From an uncultured Thermoplasmata archaeon (GTDB taxonomy: Archaea; Thermoplasmatota; Thermoplasmata; UBA10834), in contig CAVRDX010000001.1 in assembly GCA_963719945.1 (NCBI GenBank), positions 576,001 through 640,000 on the forward strand: DNA of 64,000 bases. Reading direction: 5' to 3'. The translations under genes were made by a program, and so were the position numbers. The notes beneath the pieces are model-generated. The model worked only from the letters and a program-made list of their open reading frames with translations. It did no database searches and was not told where the DNA came from. Position 1 is the first letter of the stretch; the number at the start of each line of letters is the position of its first letter. Of this stretch, positions 48,225 through 55,593 are shown piece after piece.

Positions 48225-49046
48225 TTGGGCAAACAAATGATCACAGGCCTTGAACCCGGAGAAGTGGCAGGATACGTATTCCTCTGTGGAGAACCTGAGA
48301 GGGTACCGAAGATAGCATCTGTTCTCGAGGATGGGAAGAAGCTCAGACAGGCACGTGAATACCTGATATATGGCGGGACCCTTGATGGTACACCGATCAC
48401 GATTGCATCCACTGGAATAGGCGGGCCTTCTGCGGCCATACTCGTCGAGGAGATGGCCAATCTAGGGGCGCACACATTCATCAGGATAGGGACCAGCGGA
48501 GGCATAGCGGATGGCCTCGAAAAGGGGGATTTTGTCATTGCAACTGGAGCAATACGTGCCGATGGCACCTCAAGGAGCTACGCTTGGACGGAATATCCAG
48601 CCATGGCAAACCACGAAATCATTATGGCACTAATAGACTCCGCGACCAGGAAGAAGGTGAGATTCGATGCAGGGATATGCTTCTCTGTTGACGGGTTCTA
48701 CAGCGAGAACAAGGTCATCGTTGATGGGAAGATCCAGCCAATGTCACATTCGAGCTACATGACATCGACGATGATCAGCAGGTTGGGCGATGTCAAGAAA
48801 ATGCAGGGAAAGAACATCGAGATGGAGAACGGGACGATCTTCACCGTATGCTCCTTATTCGGTCTTCGGGCCGGCGCAATCTGCACCGTTTCGGATGTGG
48901 TCCCCTGGCACCCTACGGAAAAGATACTGGATTTCGAGCAGAACATGGCAGATTGCATCTCTGTGGGCATTGATGCGATGAAGACGCTCATCTCGTGGGA
49001 CAAGAAGAAGCATGGAAAGAGATTCTACGCACCGTCACTCGGCTAG
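48225..49046 (+). CDS. Nucleoside phosphorylase (uridine phosphorylase-like)
   Basis: GEPERV, STGIGGPS, IRIGTSGG, IEME. Confidence 0.9.
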   Translation: MGKQMITGLEPGEVAGYVFLCGEPERVPKIASVLEDGKKLRQAREYLIYGGTLDGTPITIASTGIGGPSAAILVEEMANLGAHTFIRIGTSGGIADGLEKGDFVIATGAIRADGTSRSYAWTEYPAMANHEIIMALIDSATRKKVRFDAGICFSVDGFYSENKVIVDGKIQPMSHSSYMTSTMISRLGDVKKMQGKNIEMENGTIFTVCSLFGLRAGAICTVSDVVPWHPTEKILDFEQNMADCISVGIDAMKTLISWDKKKHGKRFYAPSLG

Positions 49047-50218
49047 GACGAGTCTTTCTTCCTTCGGCCACCCTTCTTTGAAGGTGTGGCTTTGGGCTCC
49101 TCTTTCGGGTTGCCCAGGACGGCGAACGGTTCTGGCCAGTCCACTGCATGGATACTGGGGGCGTCCTCCCGATCCCGGAAATATTGTTGGTAGAACTCTT
49201 CTGCGACATTCGGTATCACTGGGGAGATCATCTTGAGCAGACCAAGCCCGGTGGCCCACATAGTATACCACGCGGCCTCGTCCTTCGCATCGAGCCTCTT
49301 CCCATCATTCATGAGATAGCTGGCTGAGATCTCGTTCCGGATGAAATCCTCCACCGTCCGAAGAGCGTCCGCGGGTCTGCTGTCCTGGATATTATCATCC
49401 ACCTTCCGAGCAACTCTCACAAAACTATCCAGCAGGCTCCGATCAGAATCCTTTAGCACCATCAACTCGACGATCGGCTTTGCCTTTATGCGCTTGGTGA
49501 TATATTCCTCGAGACTCCAGAGCTGCTTCCACAATCTCGTCTCCTGACGTCGCAGTGCCAAAAGTGTTGTGGCATCAGAATATTCCCTGGACTGCAGGGC
49601 AGATGACAGATTTCGAATCGAGTCTTGGATCGAATCCACCTGGACACCGCTTCGTCCGAGCATCGGGGTGAGCTTCAGCACATCCTTGATGTATCCTCTA
49701 AGATGGCCGTGCCATTCCAGCCGGTCCTCCAGAAGATCCTTCGCCATCATCATGTTGGTCATCGCCTGATCGAACCTGCCCTCCTTGTAGGTCTCGATCG
49801 AGTCAGCAATCAGATCCTCAACGTCCTGACAGAATACCTCCGCCTTCCTGGCCTGAACAACGAGATTCTTCGCTTGTCTGAATGTGTCGATGAAGTGGAT
49901 ACTATTGAAATTGCGTTCCTCAAGGAGCTTTGCGGCCGTGTCGGAGATCAGCGCGTCTCGACTGAACAGGCATTCCACCATTGCCAACTCACCGGGCTCG
50001 GATTGCGTCAACCGTGCAGTGCTAGTCTTCACCTGCTCGCGAACCTTGGGGTTATCGTCGTTGTAATGTTTGAGAAGTATAGGCACGATAGAGAGGGGGT
50101 TCTTCCTCCCGTGCTCTTCAATCCTGTCAACCATCTTGCGTCTCCGTCCAGGCATAATGGATGACAAGTCATTAACCAAGTGCCTGTCGATTCTAAGACT
50201 CTCGACATCCTTTGACAT
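49043..50218 (-). CDS. HEAT-like helical protein with a C-terminal class Ia aaRS anticodon-binding domain
   Basis: C-terminus DRSLL...ALRTVEDFIRNEISASYL...KRL...AAWYTM...LLKMISPVIPNVAEEFYQ...SIHAVDWP; no HIGH/KMSKS. Start uncertain (ORF is open to 50344). Confidence 0.75.
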   Translation of the reverse strand: MSKDVESLRIDRHLVNDLSSIMPGRRRKMVDRIEEHGRKNPLSIVPILLKHYNDDNPKVREQVKTSTARLTQSEPGELAMVECLFSRDALISDTAAKLLEERNFNSIHFIDTFRQAKNLVVQARKAEVFCQDVEDLIADSIETYKEGRFDQAMTNMMMAKDLLEDRLEWHGHLRGYIKDVLKLTPMLGRSGVQVDSIQDSIRNLSSALQSREYSDATTLLALRRQETRLWKQLWSLEEYITKRIKAKPIVELMVLKDSDRSLLDSFVRVARKVDDNIQDSRPADALRTVEDFIRNEISASYLMNDGKRLDAKDEAAWYTMWATGLGLLKMISPVIPNVAEEFYQQYFRDREDAPSIHAVDWPEPFAVLGNPKEEPKATPSKKGGRRKKDSS

Positions 50219-50404
50219 TTCGACATCAGCGTCGCTGACATAGATTGCTCTGGTCACTATAGCACCTGGCACCCTTATGATGAGTCTGCGGATACATAAG
50301 CCTTTTCGGGTTCTGTGAATAGGCCAGAGAATCTGAGCCAGCATGCTAGGACGTTACAGATAGAGTTATCAAACAGCATCGCACTCTCCTTTAGAGGTGA
50401 ATTC

Positions 50405-50974
50405 ATGGGAGTCATTGAGTTCATTGATGATATTTGGCAGAATCTAAGAGAGAACCTGCTTGATGGCATACCAAATGCTATCGTGTTGGTTATTGGTGCA
50501 GTGATATTCCTTATCGTCGCTATGGCGATAATAATGATCATACGAAAAGTACTGACGACAATCATGCAGAGGAGCCCTCTGGACAAGAAGATAGGCGGTC
50601 TGATCGTGAAATCGATCTATGCCCTCATGCTTTTTACTATTCTTGTCGCGTTCCTTGAGATGATAGGTCTTTCACAGATCGCACTCGCCCTTGGTGCCGC
50701 GATTGCGTTCATCGCGTTGGCGATAGGCCTGGCGATGAACAGCGTCCTCGGTGACTTCGTGTCTGGCGGATTCCTCTTGGGAGAGAAGGATTTCGGAGAG
50801 GGTTTCCAGGTGGAGGCAGCAGGAGTGAAAGGCACCGTTGTTGACGTGGATATGCGGAAGACCAGAATTCAGGGGGACGATGGCATTTACTATGTCATAC
50901 CTAACAAAGCAGTGGAAGGAGCCACCTGGAAGGTTTTCAAGAGACCCGCGGAGACCAAGAAGAAGATCTTCTAA
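50405..50974 (+). CDS. mscS: Small-conductance mechanosensitive channel
   Basis: AIGLAMNSVLGDFVSG; GVKGTVVDVDMRKT; IPN. Confidence 0.88.
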   Translation: MGVIEFIDDIWQNLRENLLDGIPNAIVLVIGAVIFLIVAMAIIMIIRKVLTTIMQRSPLDKKIGGLIVKSIYALMLFTILVAFLEMIGLSQIALALGAAIAFIALAIGLAMNSVLGDFVSGGFLLGEKDFGEGFQVEAAGVKGTVVDVDMRKTRIQGDDGIYYVIPNKAVEGATWKVFKRPAETKKKIF

Positions 50975-51705
50975 ACCCTTCCCTTTCCCCTCATTTTCCT
51001 TATCTCTGGAAATCTCAACGCTTTGTTTCCAGTGAACACGATGGGAATGAAGCCGCCAAAACCTATTCCCTCGAAGAGGGGGGACATGGTGTCTGACGAT
51101 GACTGTCTGACGACATCGACCCCTCCGGCCAGTATGCTCTGGGCGGGCAAGACTAGGGTGCTCTGCTCCTCGCTATAGAGGAAACAATTATCCTTCACCG
51201 AGGCCCCGGCTGTATCCCTAAGAACGATCGAAGGATGCAAATGCCCGATGATTGTCGGCCGGTCGTCCAACGAACCCTGATGTCCGTGAAGGATACGGAT
51301 ACCGCAAACCTCTAACTCTTTCACAAGAGGAATCGAATGCTCCCGAAGTATCAGCCCGAGATAATTGTCATGATTACCCTTCACCACCTCGACTGACAGA
51401 TTTGAGGAGAGGTCGGACACGAAACTGGACACATCATCCCATTCCTGTTCAAGGTTACGTGAGAAATTGTGTTTGAGATCCCCCACAATGATTATTCTGG
51501 AGACATCCAGATTATCGATGAGTCCAGACAGGTAATTCCGGATATGACGAGTCTGCATCCTTGGGATGCTCATGCCTTCGTATTCAAGCGCCGCTTCACA
51601 GCCCAGGTGTAGGTCTGATATAAGGAGAGCTTTTGCATCTGGCAGCAGCGCTGCTCCTCCTGGGAACAGCCTTATCGAATCGTTAAGTCTAAAACCGCGA
51701 CGCAC
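50971..51705 (-). CDS. Calcineurin-like metallophosphoesterase
   Basis: SDLHLG, GDLKH, GNHD, HGH, GHLHP. Confidence 0.9.
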   Translation of the reverse strand: MRRGFRLNDSIRLFPGGAALLPDAKALLISDLHLGCEAALEYEGMSIPRMQTRHIRNYLSGLIDNLDVSRIIIVGDLKHNFSRNLEQEWDDVSSFVSDLSSNLSVEVVKGNHDNYLGLILREHSIPLVKELEVCGIRILHGHQGSLDDRPTIIGHLHPSIVLRDTAGASVKDNCFLYSEEQSTLVLPAQSILAGGVDVVRQSSSDTMSPLFEGIGFGGFIPIVFTGNKALRFPEIRKMRGKGRV

Positions 51706-51803: not shown

Positions 51804-52601
51804 ATGCTCGAGAATACTTTCGTTCTCCTCAAAGGCATAGGCGCTTCCAGGGAGACCATGCTATGGAGATCGGGCATCCACACTTGGAAGGATTTTGTAT
51901 CTTCAGAAGAAGTAAAGGGCATCGCCGATGCCCGCAAGGAATCCATGAATCTCACCCTAATGGAGGCACAGGCCAGACTCAGAGAGCGGGATTCACGCTA
52001 TTTCGCATCTAACCTGCCATCGAAAGAGCTGTGGAGATGCTTATCAGATTTCTCAGGCAATGCTATCTATCTAGACATAGAGACCACGGGATTATCCTTG
52101 ATGTCCCCCGTAACTGTCGTCGGCATATACGATGGCAGGAGGATGCACACTCTCATCAAGGGCCAGAACCTGTCGGCCAGCTCGCTCAATGCGATCCTGG
52201 ACTCTGCGGATATGATAGTTACCTTCAACGGCGCGAGCTTTGATCTGCCTGTTCTCAGAGCACAGTTCCCAGGAACCATACCTGATGTGCCCCATGTTGA
52301 TCTCAGGAATGTCCTCCGCAAGCTCGGCCTGAAGGGCGGACTCAAAGCGATAGAGAGGCAGCTTGGAATAGATAGAGATCAGAGAGTCGAGTACATGACC
52401 GGGTCGGAAGCGGTGTATCTCTGGCGACTTTGGGAGAGACAGGGGAAGAGGAACGCTCTGGACCTATTGATCGAATACAACTCCGCTGACTGCGTGAACC
52501 TGAAATCGTTATCCGAATATGCTTATGGCAAACTCAGACATGCCACATTCGAACGCATCGCTTTGATGAATGACCGATTATCGGATGAAGCTTTGAGGTA
52601 G
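51804..52601 (+). CDS. RNase H-like (DnaQ/YprB-type) exonuclease
   Basis: YLDIETTG, TFNGASFDLP, GGLKAIERQLG, YNSAD. Confidence 0.88.
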   Translation: MLENTFVLLKGIGASRETMLWRSGIHTWKDFVSSEEVKGIADARKESMNLTLMEAQARLRERDSRYFASNLPSKELWRCLSDFSGNAIYLDIETTGLSLMSPVTVVGIYDGRRMHTLIKGQNLSASSLNAILDSADMIVTFNGASFDLPVLRAQFPGTIPDVPHVDLRNVLRKLGLKGGLKAIERQLGIDRDQRVEYMTGSEAVYLWRLWERQGKRNALDLLIEYNSADCVNLKSLSEYAYGKLRHATFERIALMNDRLSDEALR

Positions 52602-52606
52602 ATTGA

Positions 52607-52753
52607 ATGGATGGGCTTCTAGGACTTATCTTGGCAATCCTCGTGTTCGTGATAATAATACTACTCGTGAATCGTTCGATCAAGACTATAATACTGCTTG
52701 GAGTATGCATAGGCGTATTCCTGGTACTGGCATACATGGGGGTCCTGGGTTGA
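52607..52753 (+). CDS. 48-aa two-TM small membrane protein
   Basis: Hand translation MDGLLGLILAILVFVIIILLVNRSIKTIILLGVCIGVFLVLAYMGVLG; fills the gap between the exonuclease and recJ; RBS GAGGT. Confidence 0.75.
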   Translation: MDGLLGLILAILVFVIIILLVNRSIKTIILLGVCIGVFLVLAYMGVLG

Positions 52754-52755
52754 CG

Positions 52756-54237
52756 ATGGACGCTGCTGATGAATTCATAGAGACAGTTCACATGGATCTA
52801 TGGCGTTCTGCTGAGGAAGCGGCAAGGGCAATCAGATCTAGCACAGATATTATCGTCGCCACGCACATAGACGCGGATGGCATATCCGCTGGTGCAATCG
52901 CAAGCGGCGCTCTCAGGCGACTCAATAGAAAGCATAAGGTCCTCTTCTTCAAGAAGCTCGACGAGGAAGCCATCGATTCCATCAGGGCGGAGGAGCCTGA
53001 CCTTGTATGGTACACTGATCTCGGAAGCGGGTCTATATCCAAGCTGGGAGACATTCTCGCAGTCGTATCGGACCATCATGTGCCTGAACCAGGACACGAG
53101 ACGAGCTCCAAGAACGGCCAGGCCAGACTCTTCGATTTCCCCAGTGTGATACAGGTCAACCCTCAATTGCACGGCATATCTGGAGCAAACGAGCTGAGTG
53201 GGGCGGGAGCCACATTCCTTGTGGCTCTGGCGCTAGACAAGGACAACATAGACCTTGCGCACCTCGCGGTGTTGGGCAGTGTCGGAGACCTGCAGGACCA
53301 GAAGAGCAGGAGATTGATCGGCCTCAATAGATCCATAATATCAGCCGCAATCTCCGCAGGAAGGCTCGATGCCTTCGAGGATCTGCGCCTCTTTGGAAGA
53401 GAGACGAGACCGGTATACAAGATGTTGGAATACGCCTCCGACCCATTCCTTCCAGGAATAACCGGGAACGAGCAGGGAGCAATTGGATTCATTCTGGAAC
53501 ACGACATCGAACCGAAGGAAGGAGATATTTGGAAGTCCTGGTCTATGCTGACTCCGGCCGAGAGGGATGAACTCATATCAGGACTTCGAGAACATCTGCG
53601 TCTCAAGGGGCGCAAGATGGAGACCATACTGAGATTGACTGGTGAAGTCTATGTCCTAAAGAAGGAAGCCAGCGGGTCCCCGGTCAGGGACGCAAAGGAA
53701 TTCGCGACCCTTCTGAACGCGTGCGGACGGCACGGGAGCGCGGAGACTGGGCTTGAGATCTGCCTTGGAGACCGAGGTGAGGTGCTGGCGCGGGGGTTGG
53801 CGCTACTCAGAGACCACCGATCCGCACTGAGCCAGGCGATAGAATACGCGAAAAGCATTGGAATAGTCAGGTTGAGGAACATACAGTACTTCGATGCGGG
53901 AGACGAGATAGAGGAGACCATCGTCGGAACCGTGGCGGGCATGCTATTGGGTGACGCTGGTTCTGACAGGAGCGCACCGATGGTCGCATTCGCTGATTCC
54001 CTGGACTCCTCCGACGAGATAAAGACCAAGGCTTCCGCAAGAGGAACTCAGGATTTGGTGGCAAGAGGCATGGACCTCTCGGTAGCTATCAGGGCAGCAG
54101 CAGAAAAAGTAGGTGGCGTTGGAGGCGGGCACAATATCGCTGCTGGCGCAACGATCCCGGCCTCCAGGAAAGAGGATTTCTTGAAGGAACTGGACACCAT
54201 CGTAGAGGTGCAGCTCACTTCGAAAGCGCGGCCATGA
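52756..54237 (+). CDS. recJ: Archaeal RecJ/GAN-type DHH-DHHA1 exonuclease
   Basis: HIDADG, TDLGSG, SDHH, GDLQD, LNACGR, GGGHNIAAGA; start reassigned to MDAADE. Confidence 0.9.
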   Translation: MDAADEFIETVHMDLWRSAEEAARAIRSSTDIIVATHIDADGISAGAIASGALRRLNRKHKVLFFKKLDEEAIDSIRAEEPDLVWYTDLGSGSISKLGDILAVVSDHHVPEPGHETSSKNGQARLFDFPSVIQVNPQLHGISGANELSGAGATFLVALALDKDNIDLAHLAVLGSVGDLQDQKSRRLIGLNRSIISAAISAGRLDAFEDLRLFGRETRPVYKMLEYASDPFLPGITGNEQGAIGFILEHDIEPKEGDIWKSWSMLTPAERDELISGLREHLRLKGRKMETILRLTGEVYVLKKEASGSPVRDAKEFATLLNACGRHGSAETGLEICLGDRGEVLARGLALLRDHRSALSQAIEYAKSIGIVRLRNIQYFDAGDEIEETIVGTVAGMLLGDAGSDRSAPMVAFADSLDSSDEIKTKASARGTQDLVARGMDLSVAIRAAAEKVGGVGGGHNIAAGATIPASRKEDFLKELDTIVEVQLTSKARP

Positions 54238-55518: not shown

Positions 55519-55593
55519 GGCCGGGGTGGGGTAGTGGTATCCTTGGGGACTGTGGATCCCTTGACCCGGGTTCAATTCCCGGTCCCGGCCCCA
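55519..55593 (+). tRNA. tRNA-His (GTG) with encoded G-1 and CCA
   Basis: G-GCCGGGG...GGGGA-CTGTGGA-TCCCT...CCGGG-TTCAATT-CCCGG-TCCCGGC-C-CCA. Confidence 0.96.

Follow-up and report, generated by a model that had tools for sequence, protein, structure and literature searches.

A catalysis-free paralogue of valyl-tRNA synthetase with HEAT-like repeats in Thermoplasmata archaea

Among the relatives of aminoacyl-tRNA synthetases that are free of catalysis, several have been found to perform unexpected jobs, including HisZ, PoxA, the HisRS-like domain of Gcn2 and DALRD3. In vertebrates, DALRD3 carries an ArgRS-type anticodon domain without a catalytic core and targets the METTL2 methyltransferase to tRNA-Arg (PMC7237682). 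In class Ia synthetases, according to general statements (PMC6372641), the segment of ValRS that is of concern here contacts the anticodon stem and loop of the tRNA. We describe here a gene in which this segment of ValRS has been retained, located on the minus strand of a stretch of 64,000 nucleotides (hereafter the window: contig CAVRDX010000001.1, positions 576,001 to 640,000 of the forward strand, assembly GCA_963719945.1) from the genome of an uncultured Thermoplasmata archaeon. The gene is a non-enzymatic, catalysis-free paralogue of ValRS. Positions are those of the window unless a contig of the genome is named (C1, C3 or C4), and amino acid residues are numbered from the ATG at 50218, that is, within the frame of 391 residues at 49043-50218.

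The C-terminal part of the protein is homologous to the anticodon-binding bundle of ValRS (PF08264; structures 4XKZ and 1GAX), with which it has in common the aspartate of DRW, R308, K329 and the motifs P..P..EE.Y and SIH..WP. It differs from ValRS in being devoid of the Rossmann, editing and C-terminal domains, in having neither K..WN nor F.W...AD.Y.E..K, and in its fusion to HEAT repeats. With DALRD3 the protein shares a C-terminal class I anticodon bundle, an unrelated N-terminal part and the lack of any catalytic motif, whereas the anticodon domain of DALRD3 is a DALR domain from ArgRS and that of our protein an Anticodon_1 domain from ValRS, and the two also differ in their N-terminal parts and in the domain of life in which they occur; the resemblance is best regarded as one of functional analogy and not of membership. 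Repeats of the HEAT_2/PBS-lyase type (PF13646, PF03130; alphaRep designs, CpcE/F) are a further point of comparison, since residues 37-107 fit two consecutive such repeats at the profile level, but only two to three repeats are present here and no lyase context was seen. Finally, Arc1p, Trbp111 and the C-terminal tRNA_bind domain of MetRS bind tRNA in trans without catalysis, as we propose that this protein may do, but they use the OB-fold (oligonucleotide/oligosaccharide-binding fold) PF01588, which is missing from it and which the MetRS of the same genome carries itself. The literature searched contained no characterised example of the architecture, in agreement with an earlier note on this DNA, made from the letters and their translations, whose author knew of none. 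The architecture is new, its kind is known.

The sole significant Pfam domain of the protein is Anticodon_1 (PF08264), which covers residues 259-368 (56.3 bits against a cut-off of 25.1; E = 4.2e-15) and thus lies at the C-terminus only, where the earlier note had expected it; the same family is also precomputed on nearly all homologues. The motifs of a ValRS/IleRS-type bundle that the note had read in this part of the protein are all present, in the order that it gave and on the minus strand. NCBIfam models of ValRS and IleRS match the protein solely over their C-terminal fifth and far under their cut-offs, the ValRS equivalogs scoring 45.9 bits against 738 (NF009687) and 36.1 against 612 (TIGR00422), so that the protein is not a valine-tRNA ligase. 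Neither PF00133 nor any other catalytic family was detected in the protein with Pfam or NCBIfam, and there is no Rossmann domain. Likewise, HIGH-like and KMSKS-like (K-x-S-K-S) patterns, which the note had reported as missing from the N-terminal part, were searched for throughout the protein and none was found; yet homology to ValRS reaches the position of a degenerate KMSKS loop, as described below. The OB-fold family PF01588 gave no Pfam match in the protein, the structural model of which is all-helical.

This model was computed with AlphaFold2 from an alignment of 20 sequences (predicted local distance difference test, pLDDT, 86; predicted template modelling score, pTM, 0.67). Its bundle, which has a pLDDT of about 90, superposes on the isolated anticodon domain of ValRS 4XKZ with a VIA Z score of 16.1 and a root-mean-square deviation of 3.0 Å over 143 residues, and the same comparison matched it to MetRS 1RQG (Z 13.1), ValRS 1GAX (Z 11.9) and IleRS 1ILE (Z 11.7). 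Foldseek assigned a probability of 1.0 to 1ILE, 4XKZ and 1GAX, but with weak E-values, and its search of the PDB with the model of the whole protein or with that of the N-terminal part returned nothing at E <= 0.001.

Several lines of evidence identify ValRS as the source of the C-terminal part. Within its own genome, the sequence closest to the studied protein is the ValRS of that genome (28% identity over 187 residues; BLAST E = 3e-16, phmmer E = 4e-18). Alignment with hhalign against a ValRS alignment gave a probability of 99.55 and placed residues 183-365 on positions 521-711 of ValRS. The homology may thus begin near the loop equivalent to KMSKS, at about residue 183, although this is suggestive only because BLAST and hhalign disagree on the register of the loop. 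In a maximum-likelihood tree of the domain, obtained by a quick method from 36 rows and 163 columns and therefore of limited resolution, the family formed one clade with a long stem (support of 99 in the Shimodaira-Hasegawa-like approximate likelihood ratio test, SH-aLRT), which was nested among the ValRS proteins of Thermoplasmatota (SH-aLRT 98), with IleRS outside. Judging from these alignments and this tree, the family arose a single time, when a ValRS of Thermoplasmatota gave rise to a copy of its C-terminal portion, the one that binds the tRNA arm and runs from the KMSKS loop through the whole bundle. This portion was joined to a new HEAT-type N-terminal module and was then inherited vertically, in single copy and under strong constraint.

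The N-terminal module consists, in the model, of six short helices spanning residues 5-101 and is mildly basic (net charge +4). The family profile repeatedly matched alphaRep designs of HEAT type (whole-sequence E = 1.9e-17; profile positions 51-121), and a profile of the N-terminal part reached HEAT-repeat proteins at E = 5e-14 and 3e-8, while the single-sequence Pfam HEAT match, at residues 44-63, stayed at 16.8 bits, under its cut-off of 23.5. The label HEAT-like given in the earlier note is hence justified for residues 37-107, which hold two to three repeats, with support at the profile level only. Folded alone, the N-terminal part reached a pLDDT of 91. Its repeats gave VIA Z scores of 7-9 with TOG, ATM, SF3b, importin and CpcE/F structures, values that lie within the background of helical repeats; this includes the TOG matches among them, with Z scores of 9.0 (5NR4), 8.8 (2QK2) and 7.3-7.4 (2OF3, 5VJC) over 68-117 residues, a complete TOG domain being an array of six HEAT repeats (about 220-250 residues) whose intra-repeat loops for tubulin binding are conserved. 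A search of the ESM Atlas with the N-terminal part returned weak HEAT leads only (score 0.82).

Relatives of the protein are numerous. Public data contain about 200 full-length proteins of 370-440 residues, encoded on many independent contigs, closed chromosomes among them. As the earlier note had it, the protein is non-catalytic and stands alone. The length of the relatives is conserved and they have no internal stops; the stops reported within matches fall at the C-terminal border of the model, as inspection of one genome (G381) showed. Distribution was examined in sampled genomes, to which all counts refer. A profile search of 301 genomes sampled across the phylum gave full-length matches in the window's own class only, and the gene was present in 56 of the 401 Thermoplasmata genomes sampled, which is the phyletic distribution that the earlier note had asked for. 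It occurs in 41 of 45 genomes of the window's own family, in 3 of 3 of a sister family of the same order, and in four further families (7 of 8, two, 1 of 5 and one genome, respectively), and in none of the sampled genomes of five large families (33-59 genomes each). By named records the second clade belongs to Methanomassiliicoccales/Methanomassiliicoccaceae, including the metagenome-assembled genomes Methanomassiliicoccus sp. UBA345 and UBA386, as well as PtaU1.Bin124, and in NCBI members of the own clade go under the labels Thermoplasmata or "Euryarchaeota RBG". The gene is single-copy, and public annotations call it "class I tRNA ligase family protein", "isoleucyl-tRNA synthetase" or "hypothetical".

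Conservation within the family is greatest in the central hairpin and not in the bundle. In the close clade mean identity is 0.89 for residues 149-189 and 0.81 for residues 190-241, and the hairpin contains the invariant residues R166, Y176, L181, P185, L187, G191, R223 and E226. Between genomes of the own family the identity of the whole protein is 64-95%, similar to that of the neighbouring nucleoside phosphorylase and above that of the metallophosphoesterase (~55%). Across both clades 37 positions are conserved, and those in the bundle are for the most part ones that ValRS keeps too. In the bundle, D259, R308, K329, P336, E340, Y343, S355, W361 and P362 are common to the family and ValRS and look like residues of the fold core. 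The basic tail with which the protein ends, also described in the earlier note, is present in the window's own clade only; it has a net charge of +5 to +8 and a mean identity of 0.24 in the close clade, and in Methanomassiliicoccales members it is absent or acidic.

The coordinates of these features are collected in the table below. One correction to the earlier note concerns the start of the gene, which it had placed at the ATG at 50218. The minus-strand translation of 49043-50218 is indeed an open frame, of 391 residues, and the frame is open from 50344. Because relatives keep the sequence IYVSDADVE directly before the methionine encoded at 50218, we take the GTG at 50257, 13 codons upstream, as the most likely true start; it yields MTRAIYVSDADVEMSKD, which agrees with the N-termini of the homologues.

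Table. Positions in the window of the gene, of the parts of its product and of associated sequence elements.
Feature	Position	Strand	Remarks
Whole gene	49043..50257	(-)	404 codons + stop; start most likely GTG at 50257 (revised), ATG at 50218 internal
Shine-Dalgarno-like AGGTG	50263..50267	(-)	5 nt upstream of the GTG start; putative, from reading of the sequence
N-terminal HEAT-type alpha-solenoid	49904..50257	(-)	13-residue extension + residues 1-105; six short helices, 2-3 repeats
Two connecting helices	49775..49903	(-)	Residues 106-148 (modelled helices 106-145); D132 and L136 family-invariant
Central hairpin	49496..49774	(-)	Residues 149-241; two helices of ~45 residues each, 149-189 and 194-241 (model)
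Hairpin tip LKLTPMLGRSGVQVD	49634..49678	(-)	Residues 181-195; aligns with the ValRS KMSKS-equivalent loop PMHTSAGNVID (register ambiguous); L181, P185, L187 and G191 invariant; catalytically degenerate
Anticodon-binding alpha-helix bundle, ValRS-derived	49115..49450	(-)	Residues 257-368; Pfam, NCBIfam, VIA, Foldseek, tree
Lys/Arg-rich tail, disordered	49046..49114	(-)	Residues 369-391; pLDDT <50; own clade only, poorly conserved
Motif VPILLKHYNDDNPKVREQ		(-)	Residue 45
Motif LFSRDALISDTAAKLL		(-)	Residue 84
Motif LWKQLW		(-)	Residue 229
Motif DRSLL		(-)	Residue 259
Motif VEDF		(-)	Residue 289
Motif AAWYTM		(-)	Residue 315
Motif GLGLLKMISPVIPNVAEEFYQ		(-)	Residue 324
Motif SIHAVDWP		(-)	Residue 355

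We favour, tentatively and with a probability of roughly 0.4, the reading that the protein is a non-catalytic adaptor that binds RNA or tRNA, analogous to DALRD3. The half derived from the synthetase would grip RNA; its most plausible target would be the anticodon arm of a single tRNA or of several, or else a tRNA-like hairpin, and its specificity would no longer be that of ValRS. The HEAT repeats, which are typical protein-binding scaffolds, and the conserved central hairpin would engage a partner protein and recruit it to the RNA.

A number of observations weigh against such an RNA-binding adaptor. Isolated anticodon bundles of class Ia enzymes generally bind tRNA weakly, and the bundle of our protein is mildly acidic, as ValRS bundles are. 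Its mean identity in the close clade (0.66) is the lowest among the folded parts of the protein. The residues K579 and N582 (K..WN) and W640, D645, E649 and K652 (F.W...AD.Y.E..K), invariant in ValRS and given here in the numbering of the ValRS of the same genome, have been lost, and the matching positions of the family (232, 235, 294, 299, 303 and 306) lack conservation among 200 members from both clades. The pocket of T. thermophilus ValRS for A35-C36 is said, in work of Fukai from 2000 and 2003, to consist of K581, F588 and C646-L650; by the offset in numbering we take K581 to be K579 of the own ValRS, F588 to be a consensus phenylalanine and C646-L650 to fall within the second of these motifs. 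If the pocket residues are those reported, then specificity for the valine anticodon has probably been lost with the signature. Reading of the tRNA-Val or tRNA-Ile anticodon, which the earlier note had put forward for checking, is unlikely to have been retained, and any RNA ligand of the adaptor is itself postulated. Gene order adds to these objections: no tRNA-modifying enzyme or other neighbour is common to both clades, and therefore no partner can be inferred from it. Neither is there any Rfam family between 46 and 53 kb of the window, nor a tRNA nearby save the tRNA-His at 55520.

The order of genes around the locus differs between the two clades. In the window's own order it consists of a CaCA exchanger, a PNP/UDP-type nucleoside phosphorylase (convergent), the studied gene and, upstream on the same strand, a metallophosphoesterase; in loci free of an MscS-like insertion, ~130 bp separate the latter from the studied gene. 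This calcineurin-like metallophosphoesterase (244 residues, 50971-51705, minus strand) is found upstream of the studied gene throughout the own family and is missing from the Methanomassiliicoccales context. The small MscS-like channel gene (50315-50974, plus strand) that lies between the two in the window is present in the window's genus and in some relatives, is missing in many genomes of the same family and has the look of a variable insertion. Only 57 bp separate the GTG listed as its start from the studied gene, and the true start may be a methionine ~30 codons inside. Farther away (51804-54237, plus strand), the gene of an RNase_H_2 (YprB-like) exonuclease directly precedes that of a RecJ-like DHH/DHHA1 protein with a DHH-CID domain; the two are possibly a nuclease pair.

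For Methanomassiliicoccales we compared 24 loci (L060-L065, L067 and L069-L085), comprising 16 full family loci, L085 with a partial match and 7 from a genome search. Their order is MetRS, PHP, Roadblock/LC7 (divergent), the studied gene, FtsZ and a TGT_C2-PUA-PAPS-reductase-ferredoxin protein (convergent), and MetRS, ABCE1 and the PUA/PAPS-reductase enzyme, of tRNA type, lie within 8 kb. In all 24 loci ftsZ lies directly downstream of the studied gene and shares its strand; the gap between them is mostly ~110-330 bp and up to ~680 bp (measured from the ends of tblastn matches). Roadblock/LC7 is the divergent neighbour wherever the upstream flank is covered, except in L082 (no match), and loci at contig ends lack the MetRS-PHP-Roadblock side. 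In the families without the studied gene no Roadblock gene was found within 1.5 kb of ftsZ. In the own genome MetRS-PHP-Roadblock is found on another contig and is followed by a Pelota/aRF1-like gene, which sits where Methanomassiliicoccales have the ValRS-derived gene and encodes a protein of 369 residues with eRF1 domains 1 and 3 (C3:264684-265793; L087:5684-6793, plus strand). The best ftsZ orthologue of the own genome (C1:25150-26298) is on the same contig as the studied gene (C1:625043-626257), at a distance of ~600 kb. This genome has at least six genes of the FtsZ/tubulin family (C1:23707-26298, C4:225443-227756, C4:292651-293622 and C4:235645-236610), including a divergent FtsZ pair that adjoins a multi-zinc-ribbon/RING-like protein and a TnpB/Cas12f-like open reading frame.

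These contexts bear on the alternative that survives best, namely that the protein binds no RNA and is purely a protein-protein scaffold, for example one acting on the FtsZ cytoskeleton or cell division through HEAT/TOG-like repeats or a conserved hairpin that would bind FtsZ or a regulator, such as Roadblock/LC7, which we consider unlikely although worth weighing. The order Roadblock, studied gene, ftsZ is kept in Methanomassiliicoccales while the studied protein diverges to 36-50% identity (FtsZ being at 60-83%). The adjacency may, however, be mere inherited gene order, because the whole region of 17 kb is syntenic, and it does not exist in the window's own order: there the gene is flanked by the nucleoside phosphorylase and the metallophosphoesterase, and ftsZ is far off. 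A scaffold would also fit with the loss of the anticodon-pocket signature of ValRS, with a best-conserved region, the hairpin, that lies outside the bundle, and with the presence of tubulin-binding TOG domains among the structures that best match the N-terminal repeats; the similarity to TOG domains (Z 7-9) is nevertheless no better than that to generic HEAT structures. Moreover, the bundle is still recognisable (E = 1e-15) after deep divergence, suggesting that the original kind of ligand still matters.

A second alternative would keep the tRNA and change the partner. The protein could serve a class Ia synthetase in trans, as a cofactor or regulator comparable to Arc1p, docking on ValRS or another synthetase through its HEAT repeats and either contributing to the binding of tRNA or competing for it, for instance by buffering or sequestering tRNA under stress. 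Its descent from ValRS, the MetRS, ABCE1 and PUA/PAPS-reductase genes near it in Methanomassiliicoccales, and the precedents of Arc1p and Trbp111 as non-catalytic tRNA-binding cofactors are all in line with this proposal. We nonetheless regard it as improbable: the gene is beside valS in no genome examined (the own valS is ~340 kb away), the ValRS of the genomes that carry the gene looks complete and ordinary, the Val-specific pocket residues have been lost from the protein and it has no OB-fold tRNA_bind domain. The tRNA-Val genes found in the own genome, which is 87% complete, are ordinary (CAC and TAC).

Far less probable still is an adaptor working as a checkpoint that couples the status of translation to the archaeal tubulin cytoskeleton, in which the ValRS-derived half would sense the abundance or charging of tRNA and the HEAT/TOG-like half would act, with the hairpin, on FtsZ or on Roadblock/GTPase regulators; what speaks for such a coupling is the long-lived order Roadblock, studied gene, ftsZ in Methanomassiliicoccales and the weak TOG-like fold matches, and nothing else.

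That the gene is an artefact or a decay product, be it half of a split synthetase, an assembly chimera or the remnant of a pseudogene, has in its favour nothing but a synthetase domain without a catalytic core and has next to no probability given the full-length relatives of constant length without internal stops, the high identity across genera and the complete synthetases elsewhere in the genome. The latter (1.78 Mb in 4 contigs) contains six Anticodon_1 matches, five of them in long frames with a class I catalytic domain, the sixth being the studied gene. Separate and intact valS, ileS (in two copies), leuS and also metS are present, the presence of the first three being a check that the earlier note had named, and they encode a ValRS of 873 residues, IleRS proteins of 1372 and 1030 residues, a LeuRS of 960 residues and a MetRS of 735 residues, all of which score above the NCBIfam equivalog cut-offs. 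The PF00133 matches over the cut-off are in open frames of 487-1396 residues, the five longest being these full-length enzymes and the sixth match being partial, in a frame of 487 residues (C3:196591-196827); apart from this unassigned partial match, no stand-alone gene for a catalytic half was seen among the PF00133 matches of the genome. A split synthetase, for example of the Aquifex LeuRS alpha/beta type, was ruled out by the full-length ValRS, IleRS, LeuRS and MetRS, and with the independent contigs on which relatives are found these enzymes exclude both the split synthetase and the assembly chimera that the note had named as grounds for rejecting its interpretation. Longer, fused forms of the family were sought as well, and none was found by HMMER at all lengths or with the N-terminal profile. 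In the former search the long proteins matched the anticodon domain only and were ordinary ValRS and IleRS; the N-terminal profile, of 228 residues, retrieved no proteins of similar length from outside the family, and the longer proteins that it retrieved were all either start-codon variants of the family or generic proteins with HEAT repeats. As to the two IleRS proteins, both of which are above the TIGR00392 cut-off, that of 1372 residues (C1:497616-501734, minus strand) has a C-terminal extension of several hundred residues past the IleRS model, and that of 1030 residues (C4:209437-212529, plus strand) scores high on models of MupA/MupB type.

To our knowledge the family would be the first stand-alone derivative of the anticodon module of ValRS, and it is near-universal and single-copy in two Thermoplasmata orders, to one of which the Methanomassiliicoccus group belongs. 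Identifying its ligand would correct a misleading annotation that is able to inflate the counts of synthetases in metagenome-assembled genomes, and would show how a module for reading tRNA has been reused after the loss of the residues that gave it specificity.

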